Below, one piece after another: positions 10,729 to 41,192 of a stretch of DNA of 47,319 nt. The notes under the pieces were generated by a model, which was not told the origin of the DNA, searched no databases, and saw only the letters and a program-made list of their open reading frames with translations. The DNA is from Escherichia phage C119: sequence record NC_042046.1; one strand, written 5' to 3'. Made by a program: the position numbers and the translations under genes. The first letter of the stretch is position 1; each line of letters opens with the position of its first letter.

Positions 10729-11079
10729 ATGGCATTAGATACTTTTACATGGTGTACCCAAATTCAAGGTGGATCAGCAAACTTTACTAACGCGAATAAC
10801 GTTAGGGTTGTTAGCTTTGGCAATGGCTACGAGCAGCGCGGAACCGGAGGTTACAGGACCAATAAGCGCACCTACAACATGACCTACACCAACACCAGCT
10901 GGAAGGAAGTGTTGGACTTCTGCTTTGCTCACATCATCACCCCGTTCGCATGGACAACTCCGCAGGGTGAGCTTAAGCTGTTTGTTGTAGCTCAGGACAG
11001 TATCAGCGTCACACCAAACACCAAGGACGTGCAGACTGTATCAATGCAGTTTGTAGAAGTTTTCACATCTATGCAGTAA
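10729..11079 (+). CDS. Minor tail protein (lambda gpM-like)
   Basis: 116 aa ORF immediately after the tape measure gene, TAAGGA RBS; first gene of the M-L-K-I-J run. Confidence 0.65.
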   Translation: MALDTFTWCTQIQGGSANFTNANNVRVVSFGNGYEQRGTGGYRTNKRTYNMTYTNTSWKEVLDFCFAHIITPFAWTTPQGELKLFVVAQDSISVTPNTKDVQTVSMQFVEVFTSMQ

Positions 11080-11151
11080 ATAGCACTAATTGCTAAACAG
11101 AAATACCAAGGAAGGTTTACAATTAAAAAACTTAAACAAGAGGTGATTGAT

Positions 11152-11367
11152 ATGAAAATTAATTTGCTTTGCACAAATGCTGAAGTTGGTGTCTTTGATT
11201 TAAATGTTGGTCAAACTTATGTGGCATACTTCAATGATGATTATGGTCATTATGAACTTTCTGATGAAGGTTTTTCTTATGAGTTAAGCGAGGTTAGAGG
11301 TGCTCCTTTGACTTTCTACTGTAAATCTTTTAGTGGTGGATTGGTGACATTCATTAAAGTAAACTAA
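11152..11367 (+). CDS. Hypothetical small protein (72 aa) inserted between tail genes M and L
   Basis: ATG 11152 with AAGAGG RBS; preceded by cassette motif aaatagcactaattgctaaa (11078-11097) and followed by its own hairpin terminator (11368-11389); AT-rich relative to neighbours. Confidence 0.6.
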   Translation: MKINLLCTNAEVGVFDLNVGQTYVAYFNDDYGHYELSDEGFSYELSEVRGAPLTFYCKSFSGGLVTFIKVN

Positions 11368-11389
11368 GGCCCTACGGGGTCTTTTTATT
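11368..11389 (+). terminator. Rho-independent terminator after the inserted small gene
   Basis: ggccc-UACG-gggtc hairpin followed by tttttatt. Confidence 0.6.
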
Positions 11390-11400
11390 GGAGAAATATT

Positions 11401-12165
11401 ATGGCTACGCCATTGAGCACTAAGTTTGAGAATCAATTACAAAGCTTGTTCCCTGGTGAGGTTGTCACGTTGATTGAGGTTGACGGAGGAAAGTTTGGTG
11501 CACCAGTTTACCGATTTCATGGGGAGAATATCAGCTATACCCCAGAAGAAATCATGATGGCGCAATCAACAGGCCAGCCACTACCAGCAAAGACAATTAC
11601 CTTCCGTGGGCAAGAGTACGGAGCAAGGCCTTTCGGTATTCAGGGGATCAATATGACCTCTGATGGCAAGGCAAATAAGGTGACTCTAGTCGTATCCAAC
11701 GTAGACCAGAATATATCTGCGCTTATCCGCACTTACAATGGACTTGTTCAGGCCAAAGTTACTATCTGGATCACCCTCCGCGAGAATATTAACGAAGATG
11801 GCACCATTGCTGATGGGGATTACCGCAAGCTGGTTTACTTCATTGAGCGACCTAAGCAGGTTGATTACAATACAGCCTCATTTGAACTAACTAGCCCAAT
11901 GGATATGGATGGTATTTACATTCCAGCGCGACTTGTTCAGTCTGTTTGTTATTGGGCACAGCGAGGGCTTTACCGATCAGGTAATGGATGTAACTACATG
12001 GGTACTCGATATTTCGATAAGGACAACGCGCCTGTGACTGACCCATCGCAAGACTTCTGTGCCGGAACGGTTCGTGCGTGCAAGCTAAGGTTCGGAGAAA
12101 ATAATCAGTTAGACTTTGGTGGTTGCGCTGCTGCAAGCCTGCAAGCTAAAGCCAACCAAAACTAA
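11401..12165 (+). CDS. Minor tail protein L (lambda gpL-like)
   Basis: 254 aa; C-terminal Cys cluster (CYWAQ...GNGCNY...FCAGTVRACK...GGCAAAS) as in Fe-S-binding gpL-type proteins; position between M and K. Confidence 0.75.
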   Translation: MATPLSTKFENQLQSLFPGEVVTLIEVDGGKFGAPVYRFHGENISYTPEEIMMAQSTGQPLPAKTITFRGQEYGARPFGIQGINMTSDGKANKVTLVVSNVDQNISALIRTYNGLVQAKVTIWITLRENINEDGTIADGDYRKLVYFIERPKQVDYNTASFELTSPMDMDGIYIPARLVQSVCYWAQRGLYRSGNGCNYMGTRYFDKDNAPVTDPSQDFCAGTVRACKLRFGENNQLDFGGCAAASLQAKANQN

Positions 12166-12174
12166 GGAGAGGTA

Positions 12175-12921
12175 ATGTTAACGCCTAAAGTTAAGATCGA
12201 AATATTTCGCCACGCCAACGAGGTTTACCCGCAAGAATCTTGCGGGGTTGTAACTCAGAAGGGGATGGCGCAGAAGTATCACAGGATTACCAACGTATCC
12301 AAAACACCAGAGCAATCATTCATTCTCGACCCAATGGAATTCATGGAGATTTCGGACAATGAAAGCGTTGTTTATGTTGTACATTCACATACTGGTGATG
12401 GCGCTACTACTAGGCCAAGCGCAGCTGATATTTGCAGCTGCAATGAGTGCGATCTGCCTTATGTTATTGTTTCTATACCTGAAGGGGACTTGCGGATTAT
12501 TCAGCCAGAAAAGATGCCGCTTGCTGGTCGCCCATGGGGTCTTGGCAGCTTCGACTGCTGGGGTTTGGTTATGGAATTTCACAAGCTACACGGTGTTAAG
12601 CTTAACGATTATCGCGTAGATTATCAGTGGTGGACCAATGAATACCCTGACAATATCTACGATGATAATTGGGAGTTAGAAGGGTTCGAATTAGTCAGAA
12701 GCAATGATATTCCAATTGGCTCAATGGTTATGATGCAGATTCAGAGCGAGAAGACCAACCACGCCGCCATATACATTGGTGACAATAAAATCCTACACCA
12801 TTTATATGGTAAGATGAGTAAGGTTGATTTGTACGGCGATTACTATCGTGAGCGGACTGTACGAATCGTAAGGCATAAAGATTTACCGGAGGATGCTGGT
12901 TATGACCCAGAACGTGATTGA
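12175..12921 (+). CDS. Tail assembly protein K (JAB/MPN plus NlpC/P60 domains)
   Basis: JAMM-like motif HSHTGDGATTRPSAADICSC and NlpC/P60-like GSFDCWGLV...H; AAGGAGAGG RBS. Confidence 0.8.
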   Translation: MLTPKVKIEIFRHANEVYPQESCGVVTQKGMAQKYHRITNVSKTPEQSFILDPMEFMEISDNESVVYVVHSHTGDGATTRPSAADICSCNECDLPYVIVSIPEGDLRIIQPEKMPLAGRPWGLGSFDCWGLVMEFHKLHGVKLNDYRVDYQWWTNEYPDNIYDDNWELEGFELVRSNDIPIGSMVMMQIQSEKTNHAAIYIGDNKILHHLYGKMSKVDLYGDYYRERTVRIVRHKDLPEDAGYDPERD

Positions 12922-13468
12922 TGTTAAGTTGGGATTAGGTTTGGGCAGGAGGTTTGGAAAGCTACATAAGCTTTGCGTTAAAACGGTTCCAGAGGCAATG
13001 CGGGCGCTGTCTGTAAACATCCCTGAGTTTAAAGATTTCATGCGTAGCCATGTGGGCCAGAACACAAGGTTTGCTGTATTCGTTGACGGTAAGAATGTTA
13101 ACGAGCACAAGATTAATGACCTTGAGACTGTGCGTGAAATTAGGATTATGCCAATCCCGCAAGGTCGAAAATCTGGCGGCTTATTCCAGACCATCCTTGG
13201 AGGTGTACTTTTGGTGGCATCATACTTCTTTCCTGTTCTTTTGCCAGTGGCTGTAGGCCTCCTTGCTGGTGGAGTGGCTCAGTTATTGGCGCCACAAGCT
13301 ACAGGATTGAATGACCAGGCATCACAAACAAGCAACCGAGCATCATACGCATTCGGCTCAGCAGTAAATACAATTGCGGCAGGCAACCCCGTTTGCTTAC
13401 CTTATGGATATCGAACTGTTGGTGGTGCTGTATTTAGTGCAGGCTCGTATGCAGAAGACATTAGTTAA
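12893..13468 (+). CDS. Tail assembly protein I (gpI-like)
   Basis: ATG 12893 after GGAGG, overlaps the end of K; hydrophobic C-terminal half; position before J. Confidence 0.65.
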   Translation: MLVMTQNVIDVKLGLGLGRRFGKLHKLCVKTVPEAMRALSVNIPEFKDFMRSHVGQNTRFAVFVDGKNVNEHKINDLETVREIRIMPIPQGRKSGGLFQTILGGVLLVASYFFPVLLPVAVGLLAGGVAQLLAPQATGLNDQASQTSNRASYAFGSAVNTIAAGNPVCLPYGYRTVGGAVFSAGSYAEDIS

Positions 13469-13500: not shown

Positions 13501-13509
13501 TAGTGTAGA

Positions 13510-16500
13510 ATGGCACAAATGGTTAAACAAACAACGAGGTTATATGATATGGCCGATTTGCCAAAGATTTATGGAAGCAAGGGTGGTAGCAAGAAGCCGC
13601 ACACACCTGTAGAGCAAGAAGATAACCTGATTTCACTAAACAAGATTAAGGTGCTACTGGCTGTAGCTGATGGAGAGGTTGATTCTAGTTTCTCGCTCAA
13701 GGATGTTTACCTTGCTGACGTTCCGGTGCAAAACCAGGATAACTCATTCAACTATGAAGGTGTTACGGCAGAGTTTAGGTCTGGTACTCAGTCGCAGGAT
13801 TACATCGCAGGACTAGATGGCGCAGCTTCAGAGATTCAGGTTAGTCGTGAAATCAATAATGACACACCTTATATCATCGCAGTCAACAACAGTCAGCTAT
13901 CAGCAATTCGAGTCAAGCTGTTCTGGCCTCGACTCGTTAAGCAAGAAGAGAATGGAGATTTAAATGGCACAACATGTGAATATGCAATCGATTTATCAGT
14001 TAATGGCTCAGCGTACACTGAGTATATCAGAGGCGTGGCTAACGGTAAAACTACAACAGGTTACGACCGCAGTATCAGGGTTAACTTACCAGCCGAGTTT
14101 AGCAGCGCTCTTGTTCGTATTAGGAAGTTAACGCCAGACTCAACAAATAGCACCCTGGTTAACGGGATGCAGATCACAACCTATCAGGAAGTAATCGATG
14201 CTAAATTCCGCTACCCTCTTACGGCACTTGTTTACGTGGAGTTCAGTTCTGACCTGTTCCCTAACGGGATCCCAACTATAGCCATTAAGAAAAAGTGGAA
14301 ACTTATCCGCGTACCGACAAACTACAATCCAGAGACAAGGGCTTATAGCGGCACATGGAATGGAACTTTTAAAATGGCATGGTCTGACAACCCGGCCTGG
14401 GTTTTATATGATCTGGTGGTTAGTCAGCGCTACGGATTGGATCAGCGAGAGCTTGGTGTAGAGATTGATAAGTGGGGTCTGTATGAAGCAGCGCAATTCT
14501 GCGACCAGATGGTTCCTGATGGTAAGGGTGGAATGGAGCCGCGATATACTTGTAACGTTGTCATTCAGCAGAAAGTGGAAGCGTATCAGCTTATTCGTGA
14601 CATCTGTTCTATCTTCCGCGGTTTAACCTTCTATGATGGTGAGCAAATCGGGATTGTTGTAGACAGGCCGCGCCAGCCAAGCTATGTGTTCACTAATGAT
14701 AACGTTGTTGATGGATTGTTTAACAGGACATTCTCTAGCGACAAGAGCCTTTACACGACAGCCAACGTTCAGTTTGATGACGAGCAGAACAACTACCAGC
14801 AGGATGTCGAGCCAGTATTCGACTTAGAAGCAACACGCCGATTTGGTTACAACCCTGTAGACTTGACTGCAATTGGCTGCGTAAGGCGAAGCGAGGCTAA
14901 CCGTCGCGGGCGTTGGTTGCTGAAAACAAACCTTCGCAGTGAAACGGTAACGTTCACAACTGGCCTCGAAGGCATGATTCCTATGATTGGTGATGTAATT
15001 GCCGTTAATGACCAGGCTTGGTCAAGCAACTACACATTAAACCTTTCGGGTCGAATTGTTGAAGCTACAGGTTTGCAGGTGTTCGTGCCATTCGCTATTG
15101 ATGCTGACCCTGGCGACAGGATTTTAATCAACAAGCCAGATGGGAGCCCAGAGTACAGGACTATCGCTTCAGTATCTGCCGATAAGTTGACGCTTGAACT
15201 GAATACAGCATTCAGCTTCACACCTCAGCCGGATACGGTATTTGCAATCGACAAGCAGAATCTGGCGTTGCAGCAATACGTTGTGACAGGAATTCAAAAA
15301 GCAAACACGGACGGCGAGGATTCATTCCAGTACAGCATCACTGCGGTGCAGTATGACCCGAACAAGTATGACGAGATTGACTATGGTGTGAATATTGACG
15401 ACAGGCCAACAAGTATCGTTGACCCTGACAGGATTTTACCACCTGAAAATATCACCGTTACTAGTTACAGCAAGGTAGTTCAGGGCTTAAGCGTTGAGAC
15501 GATGGTTATTGGTTACGACAAGGTGCAGTATGCGAAAACATACAACGTACAGTGGCGCAAGAATAACGGCAACTGGATTAACGTACCTGAGACAGCTAAT
15601 ACCGAGGTTGATATTGAAGGCATTTACGCTGGCATCTACGACGTCAGGGTTCGCGCCGTAACTGACCAGAAATCAGTGTCGGCATGGTCAGATATCACGA
15701 CAGTTAGCCTGACTGGCAAGATTGGGGAACCTTCGGAGCCGCCTGTAATTACGGCTTCTGATGATGAGGTTTTCGGGATTAGGGTTAAGTGGGGCTTCCC
15801 TACTGACTCAGCTGATACCGCTTACACCGAGCTTCAGCAGGTTCCTGATAATGGTGACGGAACATATACACCGGAGAACGCGTCACTGCTTACGCTGGTT
15901 CCGTATCCTCAATACGAATATTGGCACACCACTCTACCAGCAGGTAACGTGAGGTGGTACAGGGCCAGGATTATTGACAGGATAGGTAACGTATCTCCGT
16001 GGACTGATTTTGTCAGAGGTATGGCATCCGATGATGTAAGTGCGATCATTGGTGACATCAAGGTTGATATCGAAAACTCTGATGGTTACAAGTATCTTCT
16101 CCAGAACGCCATTGATGCAAATACTGACATCCAGAATCAGGCCGAAGCTATAATCGAGAACGCCCTGGCAAATGATACTGACGTACGCGTTATGACAAAG
16201 GAGAATCTTAACAGGAAGGCGGAATATCGCCAGGCAGTAAGTTTGATTGCTGATGAAACTCAGGCCCGTGTGGACGCTCTCACGCAGCTTAAAGCGCAGA
16301 TTGATGATGAGATTGTTGGTCAGATTACGACAATTGAAACCGCACTTGCTACGGAGACCGAAGCCAGGGCTACAGCTGATACTCAATTAAGCTCAAGGCT
16401 TGGTGATAACGAGGCGGCTTTGAATCAGAAGCTTGACTCTTATGCCACGGTCGAAGGTGTTGGTGTTCAGTACGGCGTTAAGCTCGGCCTGAAGTACAAT

Positions 16501-16965: not shown

Positions 16966-17937
16966 TTAGTAGAAGTTGGGAATAAATGGAAGTGCCATTG
17001 ATATGTTTGTATCAAATGGGAATTGCGCGCCAGTTTGAGTTGAATAGTTACCTATAACAGTGCCTGGGACGGCTCTAACTGAACCTCCAGACATGCAAAC
17101 ACCCTTGTATCGTAAGTTATTATATCCACCAGTGACTCTAGTTGTCGCTCCGCATCTAAGTATTGGGAAGAACCCACCATTCACCGACTGGTAACCATTA
17201 TTAATCTGCATAAATCCACTTAGAACAAATGGCCTCCTGACGCTAGAGAAAACTATCTTCCCAGCGCTGTTTGATATCGTTAAACCCGGACCAGCTACTG
17301 GAGGTGTATTATTGAAAATAACTAACTGAACGTAAGTACTTGCAGCAACATCATCAATCCCATTGTACGTTATATCCCTACACCATATCGTACTACCATC
17401 ACTTTCAAGTGATACGTTTTGGTTATCCCATTTACCAAAAGGAATGCCGCCAACTGGCAATGATGCAGAGCCATTAACCTGGATGCCACCAACCCAAGCA
17501 GCAGTCATTAATCTGGAATTACTTGATATCGCTGTAAAGTCAGTCGAGTTCTCAACAAGGACACCGGGGCTTGATTGTGATGATGCTGGTAAAATCTCAA
17601 AGCACTGACCGCCAAACTGCAATATGCGACCATTAGCGCCGTTAAAGTTACTTAATGTAATCCTTCCAACCCCATCATTAACCTTCGAGAACCCATTCAT
17701 GTAATAAACTTCTGGTATAACATCATATGCATCAACATAAACAGCCTGAGTTGGCAGGCAGAATGCTGTTGAGCCAGGAGTCATAGTCAGACCGAAATCC
17801 CATGATGATGCTGGTGAGCTTAACCCGCTAGTGTTTATTGAACCAGTCACGGCTGGAACTCTCAAGCCAGCTGTAATTTCCATTGCTGGCCTTCCGTCAT
17901 TCAAATCTATCAAGATACCTTGAGGCATTATTTCCAC
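16966..17937 (-). CDS. Putative receptor-binding protein / tail fibre (323 aa)
   Basis: Minus-strand ORF convergent with the gpJ-like gene, Gly/Ser/Asn/Thr-rich beta-type composition, immediately downstream of a lipoprotein gene (Llp-pb5-like arrangement). Confidence 0.5.
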
Positions 17938-18173
17938 TCCTTTGAGCCGTGATCTGCAACTGAGCCGCCGTAGCCTCCACCAACCTTTGACTCAATGCCA
18001 GCATAACGAATATCAACCTCTCCAGCTGCAACAATAACACCACCTTTCCACTTAGCTACGCAAACATCACCCGCCTGAGTCGCACACCATCCGTCAGGGC
18101 GCGGACCAGAAGAACAACCTACCGTCATGATTGCTGCTGCTGCGATGATTGCTGATTTGATGAAGTTAGTCAT
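17928..18173 (-). CDS. Small lipoprotein, candidate superinfection-exclusion factor (Llp/Cor-like)
   Basis: Minus-strand ATG at 18173 with AAGGAA RBS; N-terminus [23 protein letters not shown] has a signal peptide plus lipobox; mature part about 60 aa with two further Cys; overlaps the start of the receptor-binding gene. Confidence 0.6.
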
Positions 18174-18356
18174 TTTGTATTCCTTAGTCAGTATGTTTCG
18201 TTTCGATGGAGTAACTATAGCAAAGGCTTCTGCTGTAGTCTTTAGCAAATCGTGCTATTTTATATACGCGTAACCGATGTAACTCGATGTATACAATCTC
18301 ATCCGCTGAAAATTGTATACGCTTTTTACGCGAAGATACGCATTAGTTACATTTAT

Positions 18357-18424: not shown

Positions 18425-18719
18425 TACTCTCTATAGCTATGTTGTTGTGTTTTACTAAAATACTATGTTTGATTTCCTGTTAAGGAGAAAATGCATATAT
18501 ATATAGATAGGGTGCAAATTTGGTGGATACATTGGTTACAAGGGTTACATTCAGCATTCATGCGGCGTACAGAGCATCAAAGCGTATTTATGTGAGTTTT
18601 ACAGCTATATACAAAATAGCACGAATAATCAAAAAGCATGATTCCTGATTGGTTATAGTGCACTCACCGGCAGCAGTGGTGCTGCTTTTGATGCAAAAAA
18701 TGCACCACAAAATCCGGGA

Positions 18720-19451
18720 GTGAAAATAATTCAACCCCAAAAACTAGAGATGATAGATATGAATCTGATTAATATTGATGAAAACGTAACCATGAGTAGC
18801 CTTGAAATTGCCGAGATCACGGGAAAGCGACATGACCACGTATTAAGGGATATAAGGGAGATGCTAAATGATGAAGAGGTATCCCCAGATTTGGGGACAC
18901 CATGCGTAGTTGATGATAATACAAAATTGTATTCTCAAAATGGAGGATGTGGCCTCAAATTTGAGGGCACCTACACTAACGAGCAAAACGGTCAGTCTTA
19001 CCCATGTTTTAACTTGCCATACCGTGAAACTATGATTTTGATGGTCGGTTATAACAGAAAGGTAGCCGCAAGAATTATTGACCGCTGGCTTCATCTTGAG
19101 CGGGAGAATAAATTACTAAAAGACCACATGAAGAAGATGGTTTCACTTGACGAGGTCAAAGTTTACAAGATCGAGGCTGCGTCAGCAAAAGCCGCGCAGC
19201 ACAGAGCTGAGGATAACTATTACGCGATTGAGAAGTTCATGTTTAAGAGCATGGATAAGTGTGGAAATCCTGCGGAACTTGATGAGCAATACTTCGATGT
19301 TAAGTTCGAGTCAAATCGTTACCATGACTCTCAAGAGGTGGTTTACAAATATCAGGCTCAGCTTGAGGTTGCCTGCGAAAAGTTAAAGGCTAAAGATGAG
19401 CTTATTGCTAATCTAGTTGATAAGAATAGCGAGATTCTTAAGTTGAAATAA
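18720..19451 (+). CDS. Rha-family phage regulatory protein / antirepressor-like
   Basis: N-terminal region contains SSLEIAEITGKRHDHVLRDIREML, a signature I recognise from Rha/antirepressor proteins; start ambiguous (GTG 18720 or ATG 18750/18759/18792). Confidence 0.6.
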   Translation: MKIIQPQKLEMIDMNLINIDENVTMSSLEIAEITGKRHDHVLRDIREMLNDEEVSPDLGTPCVVDDNTKLYSQNGGCGLKFEGTYTNEQNGQSYPCFNLPYRETMILMVGYNRKVAARIIDRWLHLERENKLLKDHMKKMVSLDEVKVYKIEAASAKAAQHRAEDNYYAIEKFMFKSMDKCGNPAELDEQYFDVKFESNRYHDSQEVVYKYQAQLEVACEKLKAKDELIANLVDKNSEILKLK

Positions 19452-19524
19452 TAGGCAAAACCAATTGGATAAAATTAGCCACGGATGGCATAGTTAAACC
19501 ACACAAACAAAGAGAGATATAGAA

Positions 19525-19719
19525 ATGGCATACTTCATTATTCAAGAGCGAAACAATCCTATTTTCGGCACATGTTACTACTGTGTAGATGGCTCAGGTT
19601 ACACAAGCAATAAATCAGAGGCGGCAAGATTTGATACAAAGCAGGAAGCTATTGAATACGCCCACGTGACAGATGAGGAGCTTGGTTCAGTAATGAAGAT
19701 TATTAAGGTGAAGGAATAA
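19525..19719 (+). CDS. Hypothetical protein (64 aa)
   Basis: ATG 19525 preceded by conserved leader acaaacaaagagagatatagaa, nearly identical to the leader at 20725-20747. Confidence 0.55.
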   Translation: MAYFIIQERNNPIFGTCYYCVDGSGYTSNKSEAARFDTKQEAIEYAHVTDEELGSVMKIIKVKE

Positions 19720-19722: not shown

Positions 19723-20691
19723 ATGAGCTTCAAGGTTTACACTAGCGACGAGTTAACCAACGAAGCCTACCACAAGGAGTCAGACCATGTGTCTGGCTCT
19801 GGTCTGGCTCACATCTTCTCAACTTGCCCCGCTGCTTATAAGTTTGCAGAGCATGATGATAGCAATAAGGCTTTAAAGTTCGGTACATTAGCCCACACGG
19901 TTATTCTTGAAAACTCTGTATTCGATGCGACTTACTATCGCCAGCCAGCGCAAGAAGAGTTTGATGATCTGATTACTAGCAAGACTGCTTTGGCAACTCG
20001 GTTGAAGTCGATGGGTATTGCTGGAACATCTGGTAAGGATTATCCAGAATTAATGGAGATTCTGGCGCTGAGCGGTGAATCACTTAACGTATGGTGGGAT
20101 ATTCAGCGCTCTAACGAGGTTAAAGCGAACGGTCGCGAGATTGTATCAGCTAAAGACTTTGACACAGTACATGCGATGCGAGAGGTGCTGTGTGGCATTC
20201 CTGCATACAATGCGATAGTGAACAGTAAAACCGCTCAGCGAGAGTTATCAATCTTCGGTGAGATTAACGAGTGCGGCGTTAAGGTTCGTCTTGACCATGT
20301 CGATGTCGTTGATGATGTAGTTTATATCCGTGACTACAAGACGACTAGCGACGCATCTCCATCTGGATTTGGGAGATTGGCCTTCAAGCATGGTTACTTG
20401 CTAAAAATGGCGCTTCAGCATGATTTGTTTGTTCGCGCCTTTAATGAGAAGCGTCGAGTTGTTGTTCAGCTTCTTTGCCAGGAAAAGAAAAGCCCATTCC
20501 TTCCAATGTGCTACACGATAACAAAAGAGCACTTAAAGGTTGGTAGATTGCAATACATGAGCGCCCTATCCACATACAAGCAATGCAAGAAACTTGATAT
20601 TTGGCCTGGTTACGGATTTGGCGAAACAGAGATGGAACTGCAAGTTCCTGAGTATGAGATGAAGAAGTACGAAGATAGCACGAATAGCTAA
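19723..20691 (+). CDS. PD-(D/E)XK family recombination exonuclease (YqaJ/RecE/Cas4-like)
   Basis: Motif VRLDHVDVVDDVVYIRDYKTT (D...D/E-x-K core) and gene order exonuclease then annealing protein; stop codon lies inside the cassette motif. Confidence 0.6.
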   Translation: MSFKVYTSDELTNEAYHKESDHVSGSGLAHIFSTCPAAYKFAEHDDSNKALKFGTLAHTVILENSVFDATYYRQPAQEEFDDLITSKTALATRLKSMGIAGTSGKDYPELMEILALSGESLNVWWDIQRSNEVKANGREIVSAKDFDTVHAMREVLCGIPAYNAIVNSKTAQRELSIFGEINECGVKVRLDHVDVVDDVVYIRDYKTTSDASPSGFGRLAFKHGYLLKMALQHDLFVRAFNEKRRVVVQLLCQEKKSPFLPMCYTITKEHLKVGRLQYMSALSTYKQCKKLDIWPGYGFGETEMELQVPEYEMKKYEDSTNS

Positions 20692-20747
20692 AACGGTATT
20701 AAATTGATGGGGTATAGTTACCTCATCGACAACAAAGAGAGATAGAA

Positions 20748-29821: not shown

Positions 29822-29947
29822 ATGAAAATTATAGACAAAGAGATGTTCGAGATTGCGCAGTCTTTCGCAAATGACGCAGTTAAGACTGGATCTGAATATT
29901 GCTGGATTTGCGCTCGAGAAGCTTTAAAAATGGCTTACGGCCTATGA
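29822..29947 (+). CDS. Hypothetical small protein (41 aa, CxxC)
   Basis: ATG 29822 after cassette copy at 29746-29766 and leader catcagcaaatgagaggg; contains CWIC; ATGA overlap with the next ORF. Confidence 0.4.
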   Translation: MKIIDKEMFEIAQSFANDAVKTGSEYCWICAREALKMAYGL

Positions 29948-30437: not shown

Positions 30438-30505
30438 CACTTTTTGTTAAAACACATCGCCATGGATGGCGTATAGTGTGTTCATCGAAACGAGAGACGA
30501 TTCAG

Positions 30506-30574
30506 ATGAAAACATTACTACCGTTGATGGCTATGCCATTAACCTTTATAATCATGTACTTCATAATCTGCTAA
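30506..30574 (+). CDS. Possible 22-aa hydrophobic micropeptide (MKTLLPLMAMPLTFIIMYFIIC)
   Basis: First ATG after the cassette leader ttcatcgaaacgagagacgattcag, the position other cassette-driven genes occupy. Confidence 0.3.
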   Translation: MKTLLPLMAMPLTFIIMYFIIC

Positions 30575-30588: not shown

Positions 30589-31725
30589 ATGTCTATAGCT
30601 AAAATCACCAACGAAGAGTTAAAGCAAGAACTGGCTAACGGTATGACTAACAAGGCAATCGCAGAGAAGTACGGTATGAATATTCGTAACGTAGAGCTGC
30701 GTCGCAGCAAGTTGGCTAAGGCTGGGGATGGTCACGGTCGCGATGTGAGTAACCTAATTCCTCAGGGCTACATGGTTAAAGGTGTATCTAGCCTTGTTGA
30801 TAATGATGGCAATGTGAAGTTGCAATGGGTTAAGTCCTCTATTGATGCAGAGAAGCTTGAGGAGATGATGAATCAAGCGCGAGAGGCATTCTCTAGCGAG
30901 CTACCAAAAGAAAAAGCAGTTAAATCTGAAGGTCTGAATTTTGATGAAGATACTTTAGCTATGTATCCAGTATTTGACCTTCACATTGGCGCAATGGCCC
31001 ACAAGCATGAGTGCGGAGAAAACTACGACACAGCAACGGCAGAGAAAGTAATGAACGATTATTTTGACTACGCCGTACAGAAATCTCCAAATTCAAAGAA
31101 TGCTGTACTAGTGCTAGGAGGTGATCTGCTTCATTATGATTCTTTGGAAGCCAAAACTCCAGCCAGTGGTCACATCCTGGACAGTGACAGTCGCTACGCC
31201 AAGATTGTTTATGTTTGCATTCGAGCGGTTCGCCGCGCAATTCGAAACATGCTTAGCAAACATGAAAACGTAGAGGTTAAAGTTATATCTGGTAATCATG
31301 ATGAAAGTGGTATGGTTTGGTTGCGGGCTGCGCTTGCTGCATTTTATGAGGAAGAGCCACGCGTTAGTATTGATGTTAGTCCCGCGGCAATGATGGTAAC
31401 TAAGTTTGGTTCTACAATGCTTGGTTTCACTCACGGGCATCAAATGCGTAAAGCTGATACTCGCCTTTCGGTTATGGCTACTGACTGGCGACGTGACTTT
31501 GGTTTAAGTGATTATGTATACACCCACTCAGGCCACTGGCATTCACAGAAGATTACAGAGACAAATCTTGGTATTGATGAGGTTCATGGTCAGCTTGGTT
31601 CACCAGATGCATATAGTGCGAATGGCGGGTGGCGCTCACAAAGGCAGGCTGCGGTAATCATATATCATAAAGAGTTTGGTGAGGTTGGTCGTTTTATCTG
31701 TCGCCCAGAAATGTTTAATAAATAG
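30589..31725 (+). CDS. Calcineurin-like metallophosphoesterase with N-terminal HTH-like segment
   Basis: Phosphoesterase motifs DLHIG, GGDLLHYD, GNHDE, GH.H (FTHGHQ); N-terminal EELKQELANGMTNKAIAEKYGMNIRNVELRRSKL resembles an HTH. Confidence 0.6.
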   Translation: MSIAKITNEELKQELANGMTNKAIAEKYGMNIRNVELRRSKLAKAGDGHGRDVSNLIPQGYMVKGVSSLVDNDGNVKLQWVKSSIDAEKLEEMMNQAREAFSSELPKEKAVKSEGLNFDEDTLAMYPVFDLHIGAMAHKHECGENYDTATAEKVMNDYFDYAVQKSPNSKNAVLVLGGDLLHYDSLEAKTPASGHILDSDSRYAKIVYVCIRAVRRAIRNMLSKHENVEVKVISGNHDESGMVWLRAALAAFYEEEPRVSIDVSPAAMMVTKFGSTMLGFTHGHQMRKADTRLSVMATDWRRDFGLSDYVYTHSGHWHSQKITETNLGIDEVHGQLGSPDAYSANGGWRSQRQAAVIIYHKEFGEVGRFICRPEMFNK

Positions 31726-31743
31726 CACAAATAGTCAAGAAAC

Positions 31744-31770
31744 TACCCGCGAAAGCGGGTGTTTTTGTTT
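31744..31770 (+). terminator. Hairpin plus T-tract upstream of HNH copy 3
   Basis: acccgcgaaagcgggt followed by gtttttgttt. Confidence 0.55.
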
Positions 31771-31790
31771 CACACAACTGAGGAGGTAAT

Positions 31791-32282
31791 ATGAATTGGA
31801 ATGATTTTCTCGAATATAGAGATGGAAAGCTTTACTGGACAGATCCACACTCAACAAAATTTAAGCCAGGGGATGAGGCTGGATGTAGGCATCATAGGGG
31901 TTATCATTATATAAGGAGATATAAAACCACGATGTCAAGGCATAGGATAGTATGGACAATGTTTAATGGAGAGATACCGGAAGGCATGGAGATTGATCAC
32001 ATAGACCATGACGTTGAGAATGATCGGATTGAAAACCTAAGAATGGTTACAAGGAGGCAGAACAATCAAAACAAAAAGCTAGATGAAAGAAATACTAGCG
32101 GACATGTTGGGGTTAGTTGGAACAAGAAGGCAAACAAATGGAGAGCAATGATAGGTATAAAGGGTAATGACGGGAAGCGGAAAACGGTATATGTTTATTA
32201 TGGTGACTCTTTCGACGACGCGGTATTGGCAAGGAAGAAAGCTGAATCTGAATACTCATTTCATGAAAATCACGGAAAATAG
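31791..32282 (+). CDS. HNH homing endonuclease with AP2-like domain (copy 3)
   Basis: NGEIPEGMEIDHIDHDVENDRIENLRMVTRRQNNQNK and SGHVGVSWNKKANKWRAMI; GAGGAGG RBS; stop TAG is the TAG of a cassette motif. Confidence 0.8.
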   Translation: MNWNDFLEYRDGKLYWTDPHSTKFKPGDEAGCRHHRGYHYIRRYKTTMSRHRIVWTMFNGEIPEGMEIDHIDHDVENDRIENLRMVTRRQNNQNKKLDERNTSGHVGVSWNKKANKWRAMIGIKGNDGKRKTVYVYYGDSFDDAVLARKKAESEYSFHENHGK

Positions 32283-32355
32283 CACGAATTGCTAAAACAC
32301 AAATCAAAAGATGGGGTATATTTACTCCATCAAAACAAAACGAGAGGATACAAAG

Positions 32356-32541
32356 ATGGCTAAGTTCACACAATCAGATGCACAGATTGAAGTTAAAGAT
32401 GTTGGTTTTGGTAAGACATTTCGGATTGCACAGGCTTACGGAACTAGCGAAGAAGATGTAAAGGTTGACACTATTAACCTTACTGCTAAGAATGCACGTG
32501 AGATCGCTTATGCAATCCTTGCGGCACTTGGAGAGCGTTAA
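32356..32541 (+). CDS. Hypothetical protein (61 aa)
   Basis: ATG 32356 after a complete cassette (32277-32355). Confidence 0.55.
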   Translation: MAKFTQSDAQIEVKDVGFGKTFRIAQAYGTSEEDVKVDTINLTAKNAREIAYAILAALGER

Positions 32542-36091: not shown

Positions 36092-36271
36092 TTACTTGAT
36101 ACGAACTTCAATCATCTGACCTTTATGAGGAAGATACAGCTTTGCGCGACCTCTAATCATTACGGTGATGATATTCTCCTTAAGGTCAACGTGAAGTACT
36201 TTGCGGAACAGTGGCCCCATTTTTACCATCATGCCAGGTTTGATGTTTTCGATAGTAGTCATGATATCCAT
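36092..36271 (-). CDS. Hypothetical protein (59 aa)
   Basis: Minus-strand ATG 36271 downstream of cassette copy (motif 36337-36355, leader 36290-36320); just below the ORF-track size cutoff. Confidence 0.5.
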   Translation of the reverse strand: MDIMTTIENIKPGMMVKMGPLFRKVLHVDLKENIITVMIRGRAKLYLPHKGQMIEVRIK

Positions 36272-36353
36272 TTTTTAGCCCTTTTAATGTATTTCGTTTC
36301 GATGAAGAGAATATATCAATTTTTGTTGTTAAGGTCTTTAGCAAAAAGTGCCA

Positions 36354-36470
36354 TTAAAGACCAACCAGACATTTGCCAACTACAACAGCGATTGCGCCCA
36401 TGAAGCCAAAGAAACCAAACTTAATTACTTGTTCCATTACCGCATCAACTGCTTTAGAGATGTTTTTCAT
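36354..36470 (-). CDS. Small membrane protein (38 aa)
   Basis: ATG 36470 with AAGGTG RBS; hydrophobic helix FGFFGFMGAIAVVVGKCLVGL; the longer ORF-track version would span a cassette motif. Confidence 0.45.
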   Translation of the reverse strand: MKNISKAVDAVMEQVIKFGFFGFMGAIAVVVGKCLVGL

Positions 36471-36555
36471 TTTGTTCACCTTAGTGTTTGTCTTCTTGAT
36501 GGAAACAAATATACCCGCCGAAGCGGGTAGTGTCATTAGCAAAAAGTGCTATTAA

Positions 36556-37125: not shown

Positions 37126-37428
37126 TTAGTTAGCGTTATGACGTTCGATATAGTCGCGGATTGTTTCGCCTACGCTTTTAGCGGCACCAAAAGTGCCCTT
37201 TGCGTGGCGTGAATCGCGGTACGTCTGGAAGAATTTACGAGCGATGTTTGCGAACATTGAACCAGTCACGCGAGCATCACCGAAATTTGTTTCGATAGCG
37301 TTGCTAATGCCATCCTTGAACTCATTTTCAGTCATGAACATCTCTGCCATGCCAGCAGTCTCGAAAAGGTTAGCTAATTCATTCATGTTGTTATGGTCTT
37401 CGGCTGTAAACAGGTTCATGTTAATCAT
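37126..37428 (-). CDS. Hypothetical protein (100 aa)
   Basis: Preceded on the minus strand by cassette leader attcatctcatcgaaacgaaactaa. Confidence 0.55.
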   Translation of the reverse strand: MINMNLFTAEDHNNMNELANLFETAGMAEMFMTENEFKDGISNAIETNFGDARVTGSMFANIARKFFQTYRDSRHAKGTFGAAKSVGETIRDYIERHNAN

Positions 37429-37502
37429 CTTCGTGATTCTTTAGTTTCGTTTCGATGAGATGAATATACAATAAAAGCCCCGAAGGGCTTTAGCAATTCG
37501 TG

Positions 37503-37655
37503 CTATTTCTTTGCTGCTTTTGCAATTGCCTTCTGGACGATGTTGAAGCTCTCAATCAAATCTTCTTTGAAGTAGTCACCAACAGGCCAACCCTTACCGC
37601 TGTACTTGGCTATGGTTTCTAGATCGTAATAGTTCAAGTCAGATGGCTTTAGCAT
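37503..37655 (-). CDS. Hypothetical protein (50 aa)
   Basis: ATG 37655 adjacent to the upstream stop (TAA-ATG); stop TAG is the TAG of a minus-strand cassette motif (37489-37507). Confidence 0.4.
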   Translation of the reverse strand: MLKPSDLNYYDLETIAKYSGKGWPVGDYFKEDLIESFNIVQKAIAKAAKK

Positions 37656-38085: not shown

Positions 38086-38269
38086 AACGCTCTACCTCGA
38101 AGTTGTATACCATTACGTTTCTATCATGCTTGTTCTTTATCACCATTGACTCAAGCTCTTCGTATACAGCCACTACATTGTAAACACCACCAGGCTCAAG
38201 GCCGTAGAATTCGTACTCTTCATCGTCAAAACCATCCGTTTTACTTAGTGCTGTTATTTTTACCTTCAT
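38075..38269 (-). CDS. Hypothetical acidic protein (64 aa)
   Basis: First gene after minus-strand cassette copy (motif 38325-38345, leader 38270-38292). Confidence 0.55.
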   Translation of the reverse strand: MKVKITALSKTDGFDDEEYEFYGLEPGGVYNVVAVYEELESMVIKNKHDRNVMVYNFEVERYED

Positions 38270-38616
38270 ATCTATCTCCTCGTTGTTGATGAGTTTACTA
38301 TAGCCTTGCCATCCCCATTTGTCTTTAGCAAAAAGTGCTATTCGTCAGATTTATGGATTGTTGCAGGCATTGCGATGATTAGCATGACTATTACACATAA
38401 AGCAATATTTCATCGATTGCAATGATTTTCTGGACTGTTGCGAATTTATCAATGATTGATGGATTGATGGAATGAAGTGAGGGTTGTATCAACTAGTTGG
38501 TTGGTTTTAGCTTTCACAAGGAGCTTTCCTTTATGTACGCGTTATGGCTTGTTCAACCGTGTAGAGAAATTGCCATATTTACGCCATCCACGCCAGTTTA
38601 CGCGCTGGTTACAAAA

Positions 38617-38686
38617 TAAATCCCTTATATAACAACCATTTAGATTTATTATTATTATTATTATTATATATGTTATTCCGTAACCA
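38617..38686. repeat. AT-rich element copy B with (TTA)7 microsatellite
   Basis: aaatcccttatataacaaccatttagatttattattattattattatatatgttattccgtaacc; direct repeat of the element at 18357-18424. Confidence 0.8.
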
Positions 38687-38941
38687 TGATTATCTGAGAT
38701 ATTGGTGATATTTTTTGATATTGCGCGGCGCATAAAGATTTAGATAAAGAGATAGGGATGCAAGCGGGGTGGCGAAAATGGCTTAACATACCATAACGGC
38801 AATAACAGCCTTGATACGACTAGCGTCAGCATGTAACAATTTAGCATAACGTGCGATTACCGAGTTGAACGTGTAAATAACGCTTGCGACATTCACCAAT
38901 CATGGTAAGATGCTCTCACACCAAACGAGAGGAGTAGTAAA

Positions 38942-39457
38942 ATGAGTAATACAATTCGTGAAGCAAACCCGACACTTGGCGACCTGGTGCGGCACCTTGT
39001 TAAGATGGCTCTTAATTCAGAGGATGGAAGCGTAACAGTTCCCGTTAAGTTGCTTTACAAGAATCTTTACGGAGAAATTGATAACGACTATGTAGCAGCT
39101 GACTTTAGACCTGGCGGCAAATATTCACTTCCAAAGCTTAAGGCTTCCTATGTTTCAAATACAGCCAGCAGAATGCAGGAAGTTAAAGACGCAGATAAGC
39201 GCGCAAGGTTCTCTTGTGGAGAGATGGAGTATAATGGTGATGAGCATTATTGCGTAAAAATCACAATGGTCAACGGTGCTGTTAAGAATGGAACCCGAGC
39301 TAAGACAAACAGTCAATTAGAGGAGAAAGCGGTAAGCGAGTTTAAAGCTAGGCTACTTAAGCTTTCCCCCAGCGTAGCAGGAATGAGTGGAGATGAACTG
39401 AAGGGTGCGGTAGCTATGATTAACGCATATCAGGAAATGATTAAGGAGACTAAATAA
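38942..39457 (+). CDS. Hypothetical protein (171 aa)
   Basis: ATG 38942 with GAGGAG RBS; first gene of the rightward operon after the 650-bp noncoding region. Confidence 0.6.
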   Translation: MSNTIREANPTLGDLVRHLVKMALNSEDGSVTVPVKLLYKNLYGEIDNDYVAADFRPGGKYSLPKLKASYVSNTASRMQEVKDADKRARFSCGEMEYNGDEHYCVKITMVNGAVKNGTRAKTNSQLEEKAVSEFKARLLKLSPSVAGMSGDELKGAVAMINAYQEMIKETK

Positions 39458-40017
39458 TGTTTGATTTCAACGAGGATAAGTTAACTGATGACCAGGTGAT
39501 GGAAGTCGCCAGGCAAGATAACCTGCCGCCACTTCGTGTGGCAATCAGTACTAATGGATACCGCCAATCATTCAATTTCTGGCCCAGCGCCGAAGAGATG
39601 CTGTGCGTCAAGTTGAGCTACAAATACGGTGTCGTAGTTAGCAGGATTAGCCGCCATGGCTGGAATGGAGTGGTTGGCATTCGATCTCTATACGAGGCAA
39701 TACGAAATGTCCAGCCATTCGTCGGGCGCGAAGGGATTATGCATGACCTGACAAATAACATCATCCCAGAACTACAAGAGGCGGGAATTGTTTGCCTCAT
39801 TGGCGATAAGATTTATGTTCATCCGGCCCTGGTTGAGATGGATAAGGACGACGTGCAAAACTGGTGCAGTCAGTGCCGATCCGACGTGCCACGCTCAAAC
39901 TACGTGCCACCGCAAACAACAATCCATGGCTATAATGCCGATGAGGTGGAGAAGGCCATACAGTTCTACCGGAAAGCGAAAGCTCTCCCGAATGGTGAAT
40001 ATAGCACAAATTGCTAA
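39457..40017 (+). CDS. Truncated paralog (186 aa) of the 529-aa NTPase-like protein, lacking the central P-loop core
   Basis: N-terminus MFDFNEDKLTDDQVMEVARQDNLPPLRVAISTNGYRQS and C-terminal block VVGIRSLYEAIRNVQPF...CLIGDKIYVHP align to the ends of the 34468-36057 product; AAGGAG RBS; stop inside a cassette motif. Confidence 0.65.
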   Translation: MFDFNEDKLTDDQVMEVARQDNLPPLRVAISTNGYRQSFNFWPSAEEMLCVKLSYKYGVVVSRISRHGWNGVVGIRSLYEAIRNVQPFVGREGIMHDLTNNIIPELQEAGIVCLIGDKIYVHPALVEMDKDDVQNWCSQCRSDVPRSNYVPPQTTIHGYNADEVEKAIQFYRKAKALPNGEYSTNC

Positions 40018-40074
40018 ACAATAAATTGGGTAGTCAGCTATGATTACCCTATCAACAACAAAGAGGAAATAACC

Positions 40075-40305
40075 ATGAAAGCTGTAATTATTGAAGGTTT
40101 CGCAGGCGCTCGCACAGAGGTGTCAACCTCAGTACATTACGAAGGCATCGTGAGTATTGATATCAACTTCGGTAACCATGGCGACGGATGTGCGCTTGCT
40201 CACTATACTGCCTACCAAGCGCGCAAACTGGCGGCGGCGCTTATTCAGGCGGCTGAGGGGATTGAGAATGGTAAGGGTTACACTGGTCGGCGTAGAAGCG
40301 AGTAA
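40075..40305 (+). CDS. Hypothetical protein (76 aa)
   Basis: ATG after a complete cassette (39998-40074). Confidence 0.55.
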   Translation: MKAVIIEGFAGARTEVSTSVHYEGIVSIDINFGNHGDGCALAHYTAYQARKLAAALIQAAEGIENGKGYTGRRRSE

Positions 40306-40355
40306 ATTCAGTATCATAATTGAAGCAAATGACAACTAAACGATAGGAAGCTAAC

Positions 40356-40589
40356 ATGATTACCATTAACCTTTCAGAAGAGCATGCTGCCGAGATTAGG
40401 GCTATACTAATGCATTGCCTTAGCCGCAAGATGTTTAGCGCGTCAGAATCGCTTACAGAGGTTGTAAATCAGATTCGAAATCAGGAGTTTGAAGATATAC
40501 TGCCGTGGGAAGAGGACTTGGCCTGGCTTGAGTACGAGCAGATTTGCACGGCACTATCAGGCTGCCAACTGGCTAGCCAATACAAGTGA
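40356..40589 (+). CDS. Hypothetical protein (77 aa)
   Basis: AGGAAG RBS. Confidence 0.5.
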   Translation: MITINLSEEHAAEIRAILMHCLSRKMFSASESLTEVVNQIRNQEFEDILPWEEDLAWLEYEQICTALSGCQLASQYK

Positions 40590-40707
40590 CAATCTACGAA
40601 CACAAATTCAGCAGCAGGGGTATCGATATGCTCCTGCATTACGTAGACGAGAGATACGCCATGTTAATGCAGAAGACGCATGGCGGCACAATAACGAGGA
40701 TTGAGAT

Positions 40708-40869
40708 ATGAGCTTGAATTTTTTTAAAACTAGCATAATTGAAGTTGATGAGGCAGTTTACTTTCACGAAAATCACGGATTCGACACCGAATGCCTTGCT
40801 GATGAGGGTATGGTACTTATTGTTGAGCGAGATGAGTTTTCAGAAAACGTAAAATGGAGTGAAAAATAA
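40708..40869 (+). CDS. Hypothetical protein (53 aa)
   Basis: ATG 40708 after ACGAGGA; TAATG overlap with the next gene. Confidence 0.4.
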   Translation: MSLNFFKTSIIEVDEAVYFHENHGFDTECLADEGMVLIVERDEFSENVKWSEK

Positions 40870-41120
40870 TGAGCAAGTACAACCGACAGATTGTTGGGCT
40901 GAATGGTAAAGTAACAACCATTGATGTATATCGGGTTCTGGATGCATTCCAGGTAACTGACCCCGCAACTCAACACGCCATTAAGAAAATGCTTTGTAGT
41001 GGGTTGCGTGGGCACAAGGACTATTTAACAGACCTTGATGAAGCTATTGAGTCGCTTAATAAGGCTTATGAACTTCGAAAGCAGCGTGATGAGCTTGGAT
41101 ATGTTTATTTCAGTAAATAG
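40869..41120 (+). CDS. Hypothetical protein (83 aa)
   Basis: ORF-track ORF; stop TAG is the TAG of the cassette motif at 41115-41134. Confidence 0.55.
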   Translation: MSKYNRQIVGLNGKVTTIDVYRVLDAFQVTDPATQHAIKKMLCSGLRGHKDYLTDLDEAIESLNKAYELRKQRDELGYVYFSK

Positions 41121-41192
41121 CACAAATTGCTAAACATCCATCGCAAGGATGCGTTACCATTACTTTATCGAAATTAGACGAGGAAAGATTAA

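Follow-up and report, generated by a model that had tools for sequence, protein, structure and literature searches.

In the 47,319-nt genome of Escherichia phage C119 (NC_042046.1; the whole stretch is called the window below), a unit of about 70 nt recurs at gene boundaries and is made of a short dyad (part 1) followed by a second conserved block ahead of the start codon (part 2). These cassettes are very probably promoters. A fuller reading, in which they are sigma70 promoters that depend on an activator in the manner of Mor of phage Mu, with a conserved Cro-fold regulator of the phage (26181–26654) as the probable binder of part 1, seems to us evenly balanced between right and wrong; taken by itself, the assignment of that protein to part 1 is tentative and slightly more doubtful than probable. 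The initial annotation had left three readings side by side without choosing among them: a phage-specific promoter or operator, an RNA processing site, and a homology block for recombination. The first is the best supported, by a −10 box at a fixed offset from part 1, the lack of a −35 box, and a CA at the predicted start.

The window is the complete, circularly permuted genome of a T1-like siphophage of the Rogue1/phiKP26 type. Its segment 26000–34000 shares 97–99% nucleotide identity with Escherichia phages phiKP26, AKS96, AHP42, and Rogue1 (megablast), and phiKP26 is classified in the Drexlerviridae, Rogunavirinae, Rogunavirus. Structural genes occupy about 42.8–47.3 kb and 0–17 kb, and genes of DNA metabolism, together with small genes, fill the region from 18 to 42 kb.

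Part 1 occurs far more often than expected by chance. The exact pattern AATAGCAC-N3-5-TTGCTAAA was matched seven times in the window and not once in 100 shuffles, and AATAGCAC-N3-TTGCTAAA with up to one, two, or three mismatches gave 13, 15, and 17 copies, respectively, against 0.01, 0.06, and 0.97 in dinucleotide shuffles. The repeat of about 17 copies first reported is thus real, with every listed part-1 coordinate correct within 1–3 nt, but the list had missed one exact copy (18241–18259, minus strand) and one copy with two mismatches (38840–38858, minus strand). All copies are co-oriented with the downstream gene and lie in intergenic positions at gene ends, with 64–86 nt between part 1 and the start codon, except for an outlier of 105 nt at the decayed 18615 copy. 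The stop codon of the upstream gene falls within part 1 in nine copies, in agreement with the at least nine claimed initially, and the related protein tails are indeed present (C-termini DSTNS, NSTNC, and YSTNC); in four further copies, a TAA overlaps the first bases of AATAGCAC. The right arm has decayed in copies 18615 and 31721, and 19447 has kept part 2 alone. T1, TLS, and Rtp carry the same motif in about 20 copies each, and it is found in Drexlerviridae reported from Vibrio, Pseudomonas, and Pantoea, and is invariant even in the most divergent members available, Vc1, Motto, and AAS23. In a pattern scan of IMG/VR, the contigs with multiple copies were 47–52 kb long, and larger contigs gave only single matches.

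The −10 box is coupled to part 1 by a nearly fixed distance. A −10-like hexamer stands exactly 22 nt past TTGCTA in 58 of 81 copies, compared with a per-position background of 2.1%, and among 539 unique sites collected from family sequence totalling 1.5 Mb the distance is 22 nt in 462, 23 nt in 49, and 21 nt in 28. In the window, 15 of the 17 copies have a −10-type hexamer (A at position 2, T at position 6) in this range, at 22 nt in nine copies, 23 nt in five, and 21 nt in one; the "constant 22 nt" of the first description was therefore nearly, but not exactly, right. The 23-nt copies are 3729, 18259(−), 36355(−), 36553(−), and 38342(−), named here by the first base of part 1; the leftward small-gene operon, which has four cassettes, accounts for three of them. 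Transcription is predicted to begin at the A of CATCG (C-A-TCGAAAC), 7 nt past the −10 hexamer. Numbered from this position, a logo of four subfamilies retains −51 to −32, G−14, the −10 hexamer, C−1/A+1, and an A-rich leader. Part 2 had originally been defined by GGATGG and the bases that follow it; of this part, the four subfamilies share only the −10 hexamer, G−14, C−1/A+1, and the A-rich leader. GGATGG and CATCGAAACGAGAG are partly lineage-specific, and GGATGG...CATC is the version found in this phage of a hairpin with variable arms.

No −35 box accompanies this −10 in the main class. TTGCTA was rejected as a −35 because the 22-nt spacing is too long, as already recognized in the initial annotation, and because the hexamer located 17 nt downstream (TGGNNT) has a G at the essential second position. 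Among the 462 sites of the 22-nt class, none matches TTGACA at four or more of six positions with a 17-nt spacer. The minor classes are different: xxGACA occupies the canonical −35 place in 49% of the 23-nt sites, and TAAACA is found there in the 21-nt class, which comprises the helicase promoters. A TGn extension directly precedes the −10 in 23 of the 58 copies and in about 40% of the 462 sites; the clear cases in the window are 18259, 26666, and 36355. Conventional sigma70 promoter matches were not enriched genome-wide, with 33 found versus 44 expected and 31 versus 24. One promoter free of part 1, at 38884, shares the same type of leader (CACACCAAACGAGAGGAG), heads the rightward operon that begins with gene 38942, and occupies the same position as P01 of TLS; it is likely an activator-independent early promoter.

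The part-1 consensus, A-A-TAGCA-C-NNN-T-TGCTA-AAA, spans −51 to −32. Its half-sites TAGCA (−49 to −45) and TGCTA (−39 to −35) are one helical turn apart on either side of an A/T-rich centre at −42, all relative to the predicted start. In a set of 585 sites, the left arm is about 99% invariant and the central triplet is A/T-rich, reading TTT, GAA, TAA, or AAA. Changes in the dyad are one-sided and break the pairing (pair variants AC 32, AA 19, and CT 10), and no compensatory types were seen at any of the five pairs in these sites. Because of this lack of compensatory changes, we read part 1 as a protein site on duplex DNA, whose signature it bears, rather than as a hairpin. The suggestion that RNA is processed within the dyad is, on the same ground, not supported; a separate hairpin at the RNA level lies around the −10 instead, of which only the GGATGG/CATC form had been noticed.

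The stretch from −31 to +4 folds with a mean minimum free energy of −9.2 kcal/mol, compared with −4.7 kcal/mol for random 38-mers (mean z of −2.6). A hairpin of −7 kcal/mol or better occurs in 47 of 70 cassettes, and 38 of these 47 bracket the −10, with a median extent of −25.5 to +1. The arms differ among copies yet stay complementary, e.g. GGGGTA/TACCCC, AAGGCCA/TGGCCTT, and GGGGAAT/ATTCCCC. The sense strand is the more stable one in 54 cassettes and the antisense strand in 15 (p=2e-6), with 63 versus 27 G-U pairs, and for this reason we consider that the hairpin probably forms in RNA. Its 5' arm lies upstream of the predicted start, so that it would exist only in read-through transcripts. 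Most of the hairpins that bracket the −10 are followed by ATCGAAAC without a T run, whereas at 3729, 31721, 36553, and 37507 a G+C-rich stem precedes a T run, the form of an intrinsic terminator. Three copies had been thought to carry a terminator instead of part 2. This holds for 31721, the only terminator without a −10, but not for 36553(−) and 37507(−), where the terminator sits inside the spacer and is followed by the −10 TATATT and a leader; 3729 is built in the same way.

Part 1 is an already published, unexplained element. A re-annotation of phage TLS in 2024 described a 21-nt direct repeat, aaATAGCACnnnTTGnTAAAA, in 21 places, oriented along transcription, some 76 nt ahead of start codons, and falling into AAA, TTT, and GAA subgroups, with copies named DR1–DR18; its authors state that the repeat also occurs in T1, Rtp, and vB_EcoS_Rogue1 (PMC11447400). 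They found only three conventional sigma70 promoters and left the function open, naming stoperators, enhancer-binding sites, or UP elements (PMC11447400). The matches in the window are identical to the DR sequences of Table S1 in PMC11447400, with the same repeat, the same orientation, and a T1-like host genome. In the papers on Rogue1 and on the AHP phages, promoters were searched with the sigma70 consensus only. The TLS paper does not describe a cassette of two parts, its geometry, or a mechanism; the present analysis adds the fixed distance of 22 nt to the −10, the missing −35, the hairpin that surrounds the −10, and the overlap with the regulator promoter.

The candidate binder of part 1 is the only recognizable transcription factor among the core genes common to T1, TLS, Rtp, Vc1, Motto, and AAS23, and homologues were found in 829 phage records. 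The AlphaFold2 model of the window's protein (pLDDT 88.9) resembles Xfaso1 Cro in a Foldseek search (TM 0.73), followed by N15 Cro, controller proteins, and lambda cI; its Pfam matches are limited to sub-threshold P22_Cro and YdaS, and no Pfam Mor match places it in the Mor/C family. Two parts of the family are invariant, an N-terminal arm DKRxxNGNNGxxRxxDxxxR (residues 5–25, low pLDDT) and a C-terminal segment GFRAxFCRPDLxFDxNGK (96–112). About 20 records titled "Campylobacter phage" also contain a homologue, up to about 68% identical in amino-acid sequence to the window's regulator, as in enterobacterial T1-like phages; the host assignment of these records looks doubtful. A second candidate factor, the DUF7174 protein (38942–39457, plus strand), is encoded by the first gene after the part-1-free promoter. 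It has a confident model (pLDDT 83) without structural relatives in the PDB, is also not conserved family-wide (tblastn), and was rejected. No sigma, anti-sigma, MotA-like, or AsiA-like domain was found in the 40 small open reading frames (ORFs) of the window.

The regulator gene has a conventional sigma70 promoter of its own. In the region 26698–26733, its −10 (TATAAT, 26710–26705) overlaps, on the opposite strand, the −10 of the divergent helicase cassette (TATTAT, 26704–26709), and polymerase cannot occupy both at once. In nine phages checked, the divergent layout is comparable, and the regulator promoter reads TTGAAT, TTGACT, or TTTAAT, then a 17-nt spacer and TATAAT or similar; the overlap of the two −10 boxes is visible in most of them, with part 1 at about +15 to +33, in the 5' untranslated region (UTR), of the regulator transcript. 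The equivalent promoter in TLS is P57, one of the three conventional promoters identified in that phage (Supplementary Table S1 of PMC11447400). This divergent layout is what an autoregulated activator switch would look like.

We propose that each cassette is a compact boundary between transcription units, with a family-specific promoter that would be read by the host sigma70 polymerase. The core promoter would comprise the −10 (TATAGT or similar), a start 7 nt further on, a short A-rich leader, and a strong Shine-Dalgarno (SD) sequence, with no −35. A dimeric phage protein on part 1 may recruit or position RNA polymerase, as Mor and C do at the Mu promoters or as class II activators do. At its own locus, binding of the regulator would divert polymerase away from the regulator gene and towards the helicase operon, because the regulator −10 overlaps the antiparallel −10 of the putatively part-1-dependent helicase promoter. 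The minority class with 23-nt spacing and xxGACA at −35 can probably fire without the factor and may be early. The hairpin, which lies between part 1 and the start and usually encloses the −10, would be a second, independent feature, formed in read-through RNA from the upstream gene and acting as a terminator, an attenuator, or a 3' stabilizer, so that one unit may end where the next begins. Finally, some 20 near-identical 70-nt units at gene ends would also mark, and may promote, the exchange of modules.

Table 1 Cassettes, part-1 look-alikes, and regulator features of the window.
Feature	Span (strand)	Part 1	−10 hexamer, distance from TTGCTA	Predicted +1	Start codon	Remarks
Cassette after major head gene	3729–3803 (+)	3729–3747; right arm TTGACA, 3 mismatches	TATTTT 3769–3774, 23 nt		ATG 3801, HNH-AP2 endonuclease gene	Terminator hairpin 3753–3768 inside spacer
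Cassette	11079–11154 (+)	11079–11097, exact	TACAAT 11118–11123, 22 nt		ATG 11152, small gene	Small gene absent from JK06, phiEB49, and Rtp
Cassette	18171–18259 (−)	18241–18259, exact	Extended, tgcTATAGT 18214–18219, 23 nt	18207 (CATCGAAACGAAAC)	ATG 18173, lipoprotein gene	Overlooked initially; AAGACT at −35 position
Decayed cassette	18615–18722 (+)	Left arm kept, right arm lost (AATAGCACGAATAATCAAA)	TATAGT 18654–18659, still 22 nt			Upstream of Rha-like gene
Diverged copy	19447–19527 (+)	Unrecognizable	GGATGG-CATAGT retained		ATG 19525	Leader and SD retained
Cassette	20674–20750 (+)	20674–20692	TATAGT 20713–20718	20725		Upstream of Erf gene; holds TAA stop of RecE-like gene (..DSTNS, stop); 9-bp hairpin GATGGGGTA/TACCTCATC around −10, −13 kcal/mol
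Helicase cassette	26666–26749 (+)	26666–26684	Extended, tgtTATTAT 26704–26709, 21 nt	26716	ATG 26747	Divergent from regulator gene
Cassette	29062–29140 (+)	29062–29080, exact	TATAGT 29101–29106	29113	ATG 29138	Holds TAA stop of VRR-NUC gene (..NSTNC, stop)
Cassette	29747–29824 (+)	29747–29765, TTGTTA variant	TATATT 29786–29791	29798	ATG 29822	
Cassette	30433–30508 (+)	30433–30451	TATAGT 30472–30477	30484 (CATCGAAACGAGAG)	ATG 30506, very short ORF ahead of exonuclease gene	Holds upstream TAG stop
Copy with terminator	31721–31793 (+)	31721–31739, decayed, right arm lost	None			Terminator 31744–31761; upstream of HNH gene 31791–32282; Rogue1 lacks ~31728 to 32277
Cassette	32278–32358 (+)	32278–32296, exact	TATATT 32317–32322	32329	ATG 32356	Holds TAG stop of HNH gene; bracketing hairpin, −13 kcal/mol
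Cassette	36269–36355 (−)	36337–36355, AATGGCAC variant	Extended, tgaTATATT 36310–36315, 23 nt	36303	ATG 36271	
Cassette	36468–36553 (−)	36535–36553	TATATT 36508–36513, 23 nt		ATG 36470	Terminator 36512–36529 in spacer; ATGACA at −35 position
Cassette	37426–37507 (−)	37489–37507, exact	TATATT 37463–37468, 22 nt	37456 (CATCGAAACGAAAC)	ATG 37428	Holds upstream TAG stop; terminator 37474–37491 inside spacer
First cassette of leftward small-gene operon	38267–38342 (−)	38324–38342, exact	TATAGT 38297–38302, 23 nt	38290	ATG 38269	AAGACA at −35 position
Cassette	40000–40077 (+)	40000–40018	TATGAT 40039–40044	40051	ATG 40075	Holds TAA stop (..YSTNC, stop); hairpin GGGTAGTCA/TGATTACCC, −13 kcal/mol
Cassette	41116–41195 (+)	41116–41134, exact	TACCAT 41155–41160	41167	ATG 41193	Holds TAG stop
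Isolated look-alike, status uncertain	38840–38858 (−)	2 mismatches (AATCGCACGTTATGCTAAA)	None at 21–23 nt			In 600-bp non-coding region
Look-alike	13509–13527 (+)	3 mismatches	None downstream			Overlaps ATG of tail J-like gene
Part-1-free promoter	38884–38918 (+)		TGgTAAGAT after TTGCGA and 16-nt spacer (38884–38911)	38918		
Regulator promoter, conventional sigma70	26705–26733 (−)		TATAAT 26710–26705; −35 TTTAAT 26733–26728, 17-nt spacer			
Regulator, candidate part-1 binder	26181–26654 (−)					157 aa; T1 gp23/Rtp52 family; Cro/Xre-type helix-turn-helix (HTH) core

Several findings weigh against the activator reading. No transcript, footprint, or reporter data for any T1-like phage were found in the literature searched, and because of this the start sites and activation are inferred from the consensus geometry. 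About 40% of the copies carry TGn and could fire without an activator. The first promoter of the leftward operon, which should fire before any phage protein is made, carries an exact part 1, and its partial −35 would suit a host-recognized or a negative element just as well. There is also a part 1 that has a terminator but no −10 (31721) and one that stands on its own (38840–38858). The Cro-fold matches of the regulator have weak E-values (0.02–1), and its predicted recognition helix is variable (TRQAVEEW, SNQTVQGW, CCVRLTNAY, and PYVTVRNAY) while the DNA motif is near-invariant, which weakens its assignment as the binder; a variable helix beside an invariant N-terminal arm and C-terminal segment is unusual for a sequence-specific HTH protein. 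The motif is invariant even in Vc1, Motto, and AAS23, which leaves no room for co-variation with the helix; the variability of the helix counts against the simple idea that the HTH reads the dyad.

Two other explanations we consider unlikely. In the first, part 1 has a negative role, as an operator or "stoperator" at which a phage protein shuts the promoters later or blocks read-through, and the promoters work unaided through their (extended) −10 boxes. The roughly 20 oriented, intergenic copies resemble the stoperators of mycobacteriophage L5, an idea raised by the TLS authors (PMC11447400). The TGn in 23 of 58 copies, the position of part 1 directly after the upstream stop and in the 5' UTR of the regulator, a natural place for autorepression, and its company with a terminator at 31721 without a −10 all agree with it. 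However, the 60% of copies with neither TGn nor −35 would be very weak unaided, and a pure roadblock would not need a fixed 22-nt distance to the −10. T1-like phages are also virulent and have no lysogenic silencing to maintain.

In the second, which appears similarly improbable, part 1 is read by the host alone, either as an UP-like element bound by alpha-CTD or because a conserved regulator of the host, for instance Lrp, binds there. A factor present at infection would most easily explain why nearly every promoter, including the first leftward one, carries part 1; the A/T tract (AATT or TTTTT) near −42 would suit alpha-CTD or Lrp, and the recognition helix of the regulator is not conserved. 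UP elements are among the options listed by the TLS authors (PMC11447400), and the Lrp consensus yAGhAwATTwTdCTr, which was confirmed (PMC5554404), fits TAGCAcnnnTTGCTA at 11–13 of 15 positions. Against a host reader, the invariant AGCAC and TTGCTAAA bases are foreign to UP elements, which are mostly A and T tracts (PMC4390567), and family members reported on Vibrio and Pseudomonas carry the motif without change. For Lrp, the match to the consensus is real, but the conserved C at −44 clashes with the A/T that it prefers. A Keio screen with the T1-like phage LL5 found only eight required host genes; the table rows examined are lipopolysaccharide-core (waa) genes, and the paper makes no mention of lrp (PMC7229145), although the motif content of LL5 was not checked. 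Lrp is therefore kept as a minor rival only.

It is very improbable that part 1 acts in RNA, as a boxB-like stem of 5 bp with a 5-nt loop at the 3' end of the upstream transcript that recruits a processing nuclease or an antiterminator passing the next hairpin. TAGCA and TGCTA can pair, pairing survives as G-U after the frequent C-to-T change at −37 (180 of 585 sites), and part 1 is always on the sense strand with a hairpin or terminator after it. However, besides the lack of compensatory changes at the five pairs, the other variants break the pairing (CA 46, AA 27, AC 32, and AA 44), the stem has only 5 bp with two G-C pairs, the conservation is one of sequence and reaches beyond the stem, the position of the hairpin varies while the distance to the −10 is fixed, and there is no Rfam match.

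The cassettes could also be mainly recombination substrates, homology blocks for swapping unrelated genes as in the PeSL precedent (PMC4122927), with regulation secondary. In comparisons with phiKP26, Rogue1, and JK06, homology is lost at 9 of the 17 cassette junctions, against 11 of the 59 others (Fisher p=0.01); in many cases the break coincides with the first base of part 1 (11080, 32277, 41115, and 39999), and the segment between part-1 copies 31721 and 32278, which contains the HNH gene 31791–32282, is absent from Rogue1. When all six comparators, including distant ones, are taken together, the breaks (15 of 17 versus 40 of 59 junctions) are no longer significantly enriched (p=0.13). The recombination block of the initial annotation thus keeps some support, as a by-product, and we take the enrichment of breakpoints to follow from the repetition of promoter units at the edges of modules; as a primary function it is very improbable, since strict spacing and the conservation of the −10 and of the start bases over four subfamilies indicate selection for transcription rather than for homology alone, and module boundaries coincide with promoter-led units anyway.

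Some other features of the genome lie close to the cassettes. The HNH endonuclease genes at 3801–4331, 21437–21931, and 31791–32282, two of which have an AP2 domain, are each missing or replaced in some close relatives; those at 3801–4331 and 31791–32282 stand directly behind a cassette, and the latter is flanked by two part-1 copies. The full part 2 of the 18259(−) cassette (tgcTATAGT, CATCGAAACGAAAC) places the start of the lipoprotein gene, annotated as 17928–18248 (minus strand), at ATG 18173, and this gene most likely starts there and not at TTG 18248. In T1 (25020) and in TLS (24907), weak look-alikes of part 1, with three mismatches and no −10, stand a short way upstream of the counterpart of the tail J-like gene; the one in TLS is DR8 in the list of the TLS authors (PMC11447400). 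The divergent early operons are separated by a 600-bp non-coding region (38343–38941), which contains a (TTA)n run at about 38645–38670 and short direct repeats GATTGATGGATTGATGGAATGA at about 38452–38475, and which could hold an origin or other control sites. A tRNA-Arg gene with the anticodon CCU is present at 42465–42540 (plus strand), as in Rogue1 and the AHP phages; in a search of Rfam it was the only match, and no family was found for part 1 or the cassettes.

Of the classical T phages, T1 is the one whose transcription is understood least, and its relatives, the Drexlerviridae, supply some of the most frequent coliphage and Klebsiella phage isolates in therapy and genetics. A published but unexplained repeat now has a specific hypothesis, based on the 22-nt coupling to the −10, the lack of a −35, the dyad at −42, and the promoter switch at the regulator gene. 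In its widest form, this hypothesis states that most of a T1-like genome runs from an uncharacterized promoter class: about 20 sigma70 promoters without a −35, a new family of Cro-fold activators with a DKRxxNGNNG arm placed at −42 and unrelated to Mor/C, MotA, or CRP, a switch made of overlapping −10 boxes, and fused RNA hairpins that end the preceding units. We regard this wider statement as possible but on balance doubtful. If true, it would provide the temporal programme of the family, a new family of activators of the sigma70 polymerase, and about 20 portable, graded promoters dependent on a phage factor. For annotation, the predicted start sites correct several start codons, e.g. that of the lipoprotein gene.

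Among described elements, the DR element of TLS has the same consensus, orientation, AAA/TTT/GAA subgroups, and intergenic position (about 76 nt from the start codon there and 64–86 nt here, with one decayed copy at 105 nt); the difference is that the TLS paper describes the 21-nt repeat alone. Sigma54 promoters (TGGCAC-N5-TTGCA) resemble part 1 in both halves, T(A/G)GCAC ... TTGC(T/A), and copy 36355 reads TGGCAC. Nevertheless, the G-to-G distance is 9 instead of 11 (GG-N10-GC), the first G is an A in 565 of 585 sites, and a sigma70-type −10 and start lie 22–35 nt further on, the start being about 40 nt downstream; a sigma54 promoter was therefore rejected as a look-alike only. The stoperators of L5 silence a prophage through its repressor, whereas T1-like phages are virulent, and to our knowledge no fixed distance to a −10 goes with these sites. 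What they share with part 1 is that many oriented, asymmetric sites lie in short intergenic gaps along transcription (as outlined in PMC11447400). In T4-type phages, the PeSL cassettes (PMC4122927) are likewise short, repeated units of a terminator or stem-loop and a promoter, located between small variable genes and associated with the boundaries of indels and swaps; they contain ordinary early sigma70 promoters, whereas the cassettes described here have no −35, a conserved dyad, and only a modest enrichment of breakpoints (p=0.01 with close relatives, not significant with distant ones).

In class II activation of the CRP/FNR type and at the MotA/AsiA middle promoters of T4, a protein bound upstream, its site a set distance from the −10, likewise replaces the −35 contact. 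T4 middle promoters need the phage factors MotA and AsiA (PMC6024815). In the T1-like cassettes, the short inverted repeats that take the place of the −35 are centred at −42 relative to the predicted start, in keeping with the −42 to −43.5 of a Mor/C- or class II-type site. A class II activator site is centred at about −41.5, and the MotA box lies at −30, compared with −42 here; moreover, no MotA, AsiA, sigma, or anti-sigma domain was seen among the small proteins of the window. At the Pm promoter of phage Mu, a Mor dimer binds a pair of 5-bp inverted repeats in a 16-bp element centred at −43.5, which replaces the −35 (PMC4390567), and the late promoters of Mu, which possess a −10 and lack a −35, depend on the C protein (PMC2582627). 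The candidate regulator differs from Mor and C in having a Cro/Xre HTH fold, there would be about 20 promoters per genome instead of five, and activation is predicted here. At the Mu promoters the host sigma70 polymerase meets a recognizable −10 without a −35, as it would in the T1-like phages, where two 5-bp inverted repeats form a 15-bp element at about −42.

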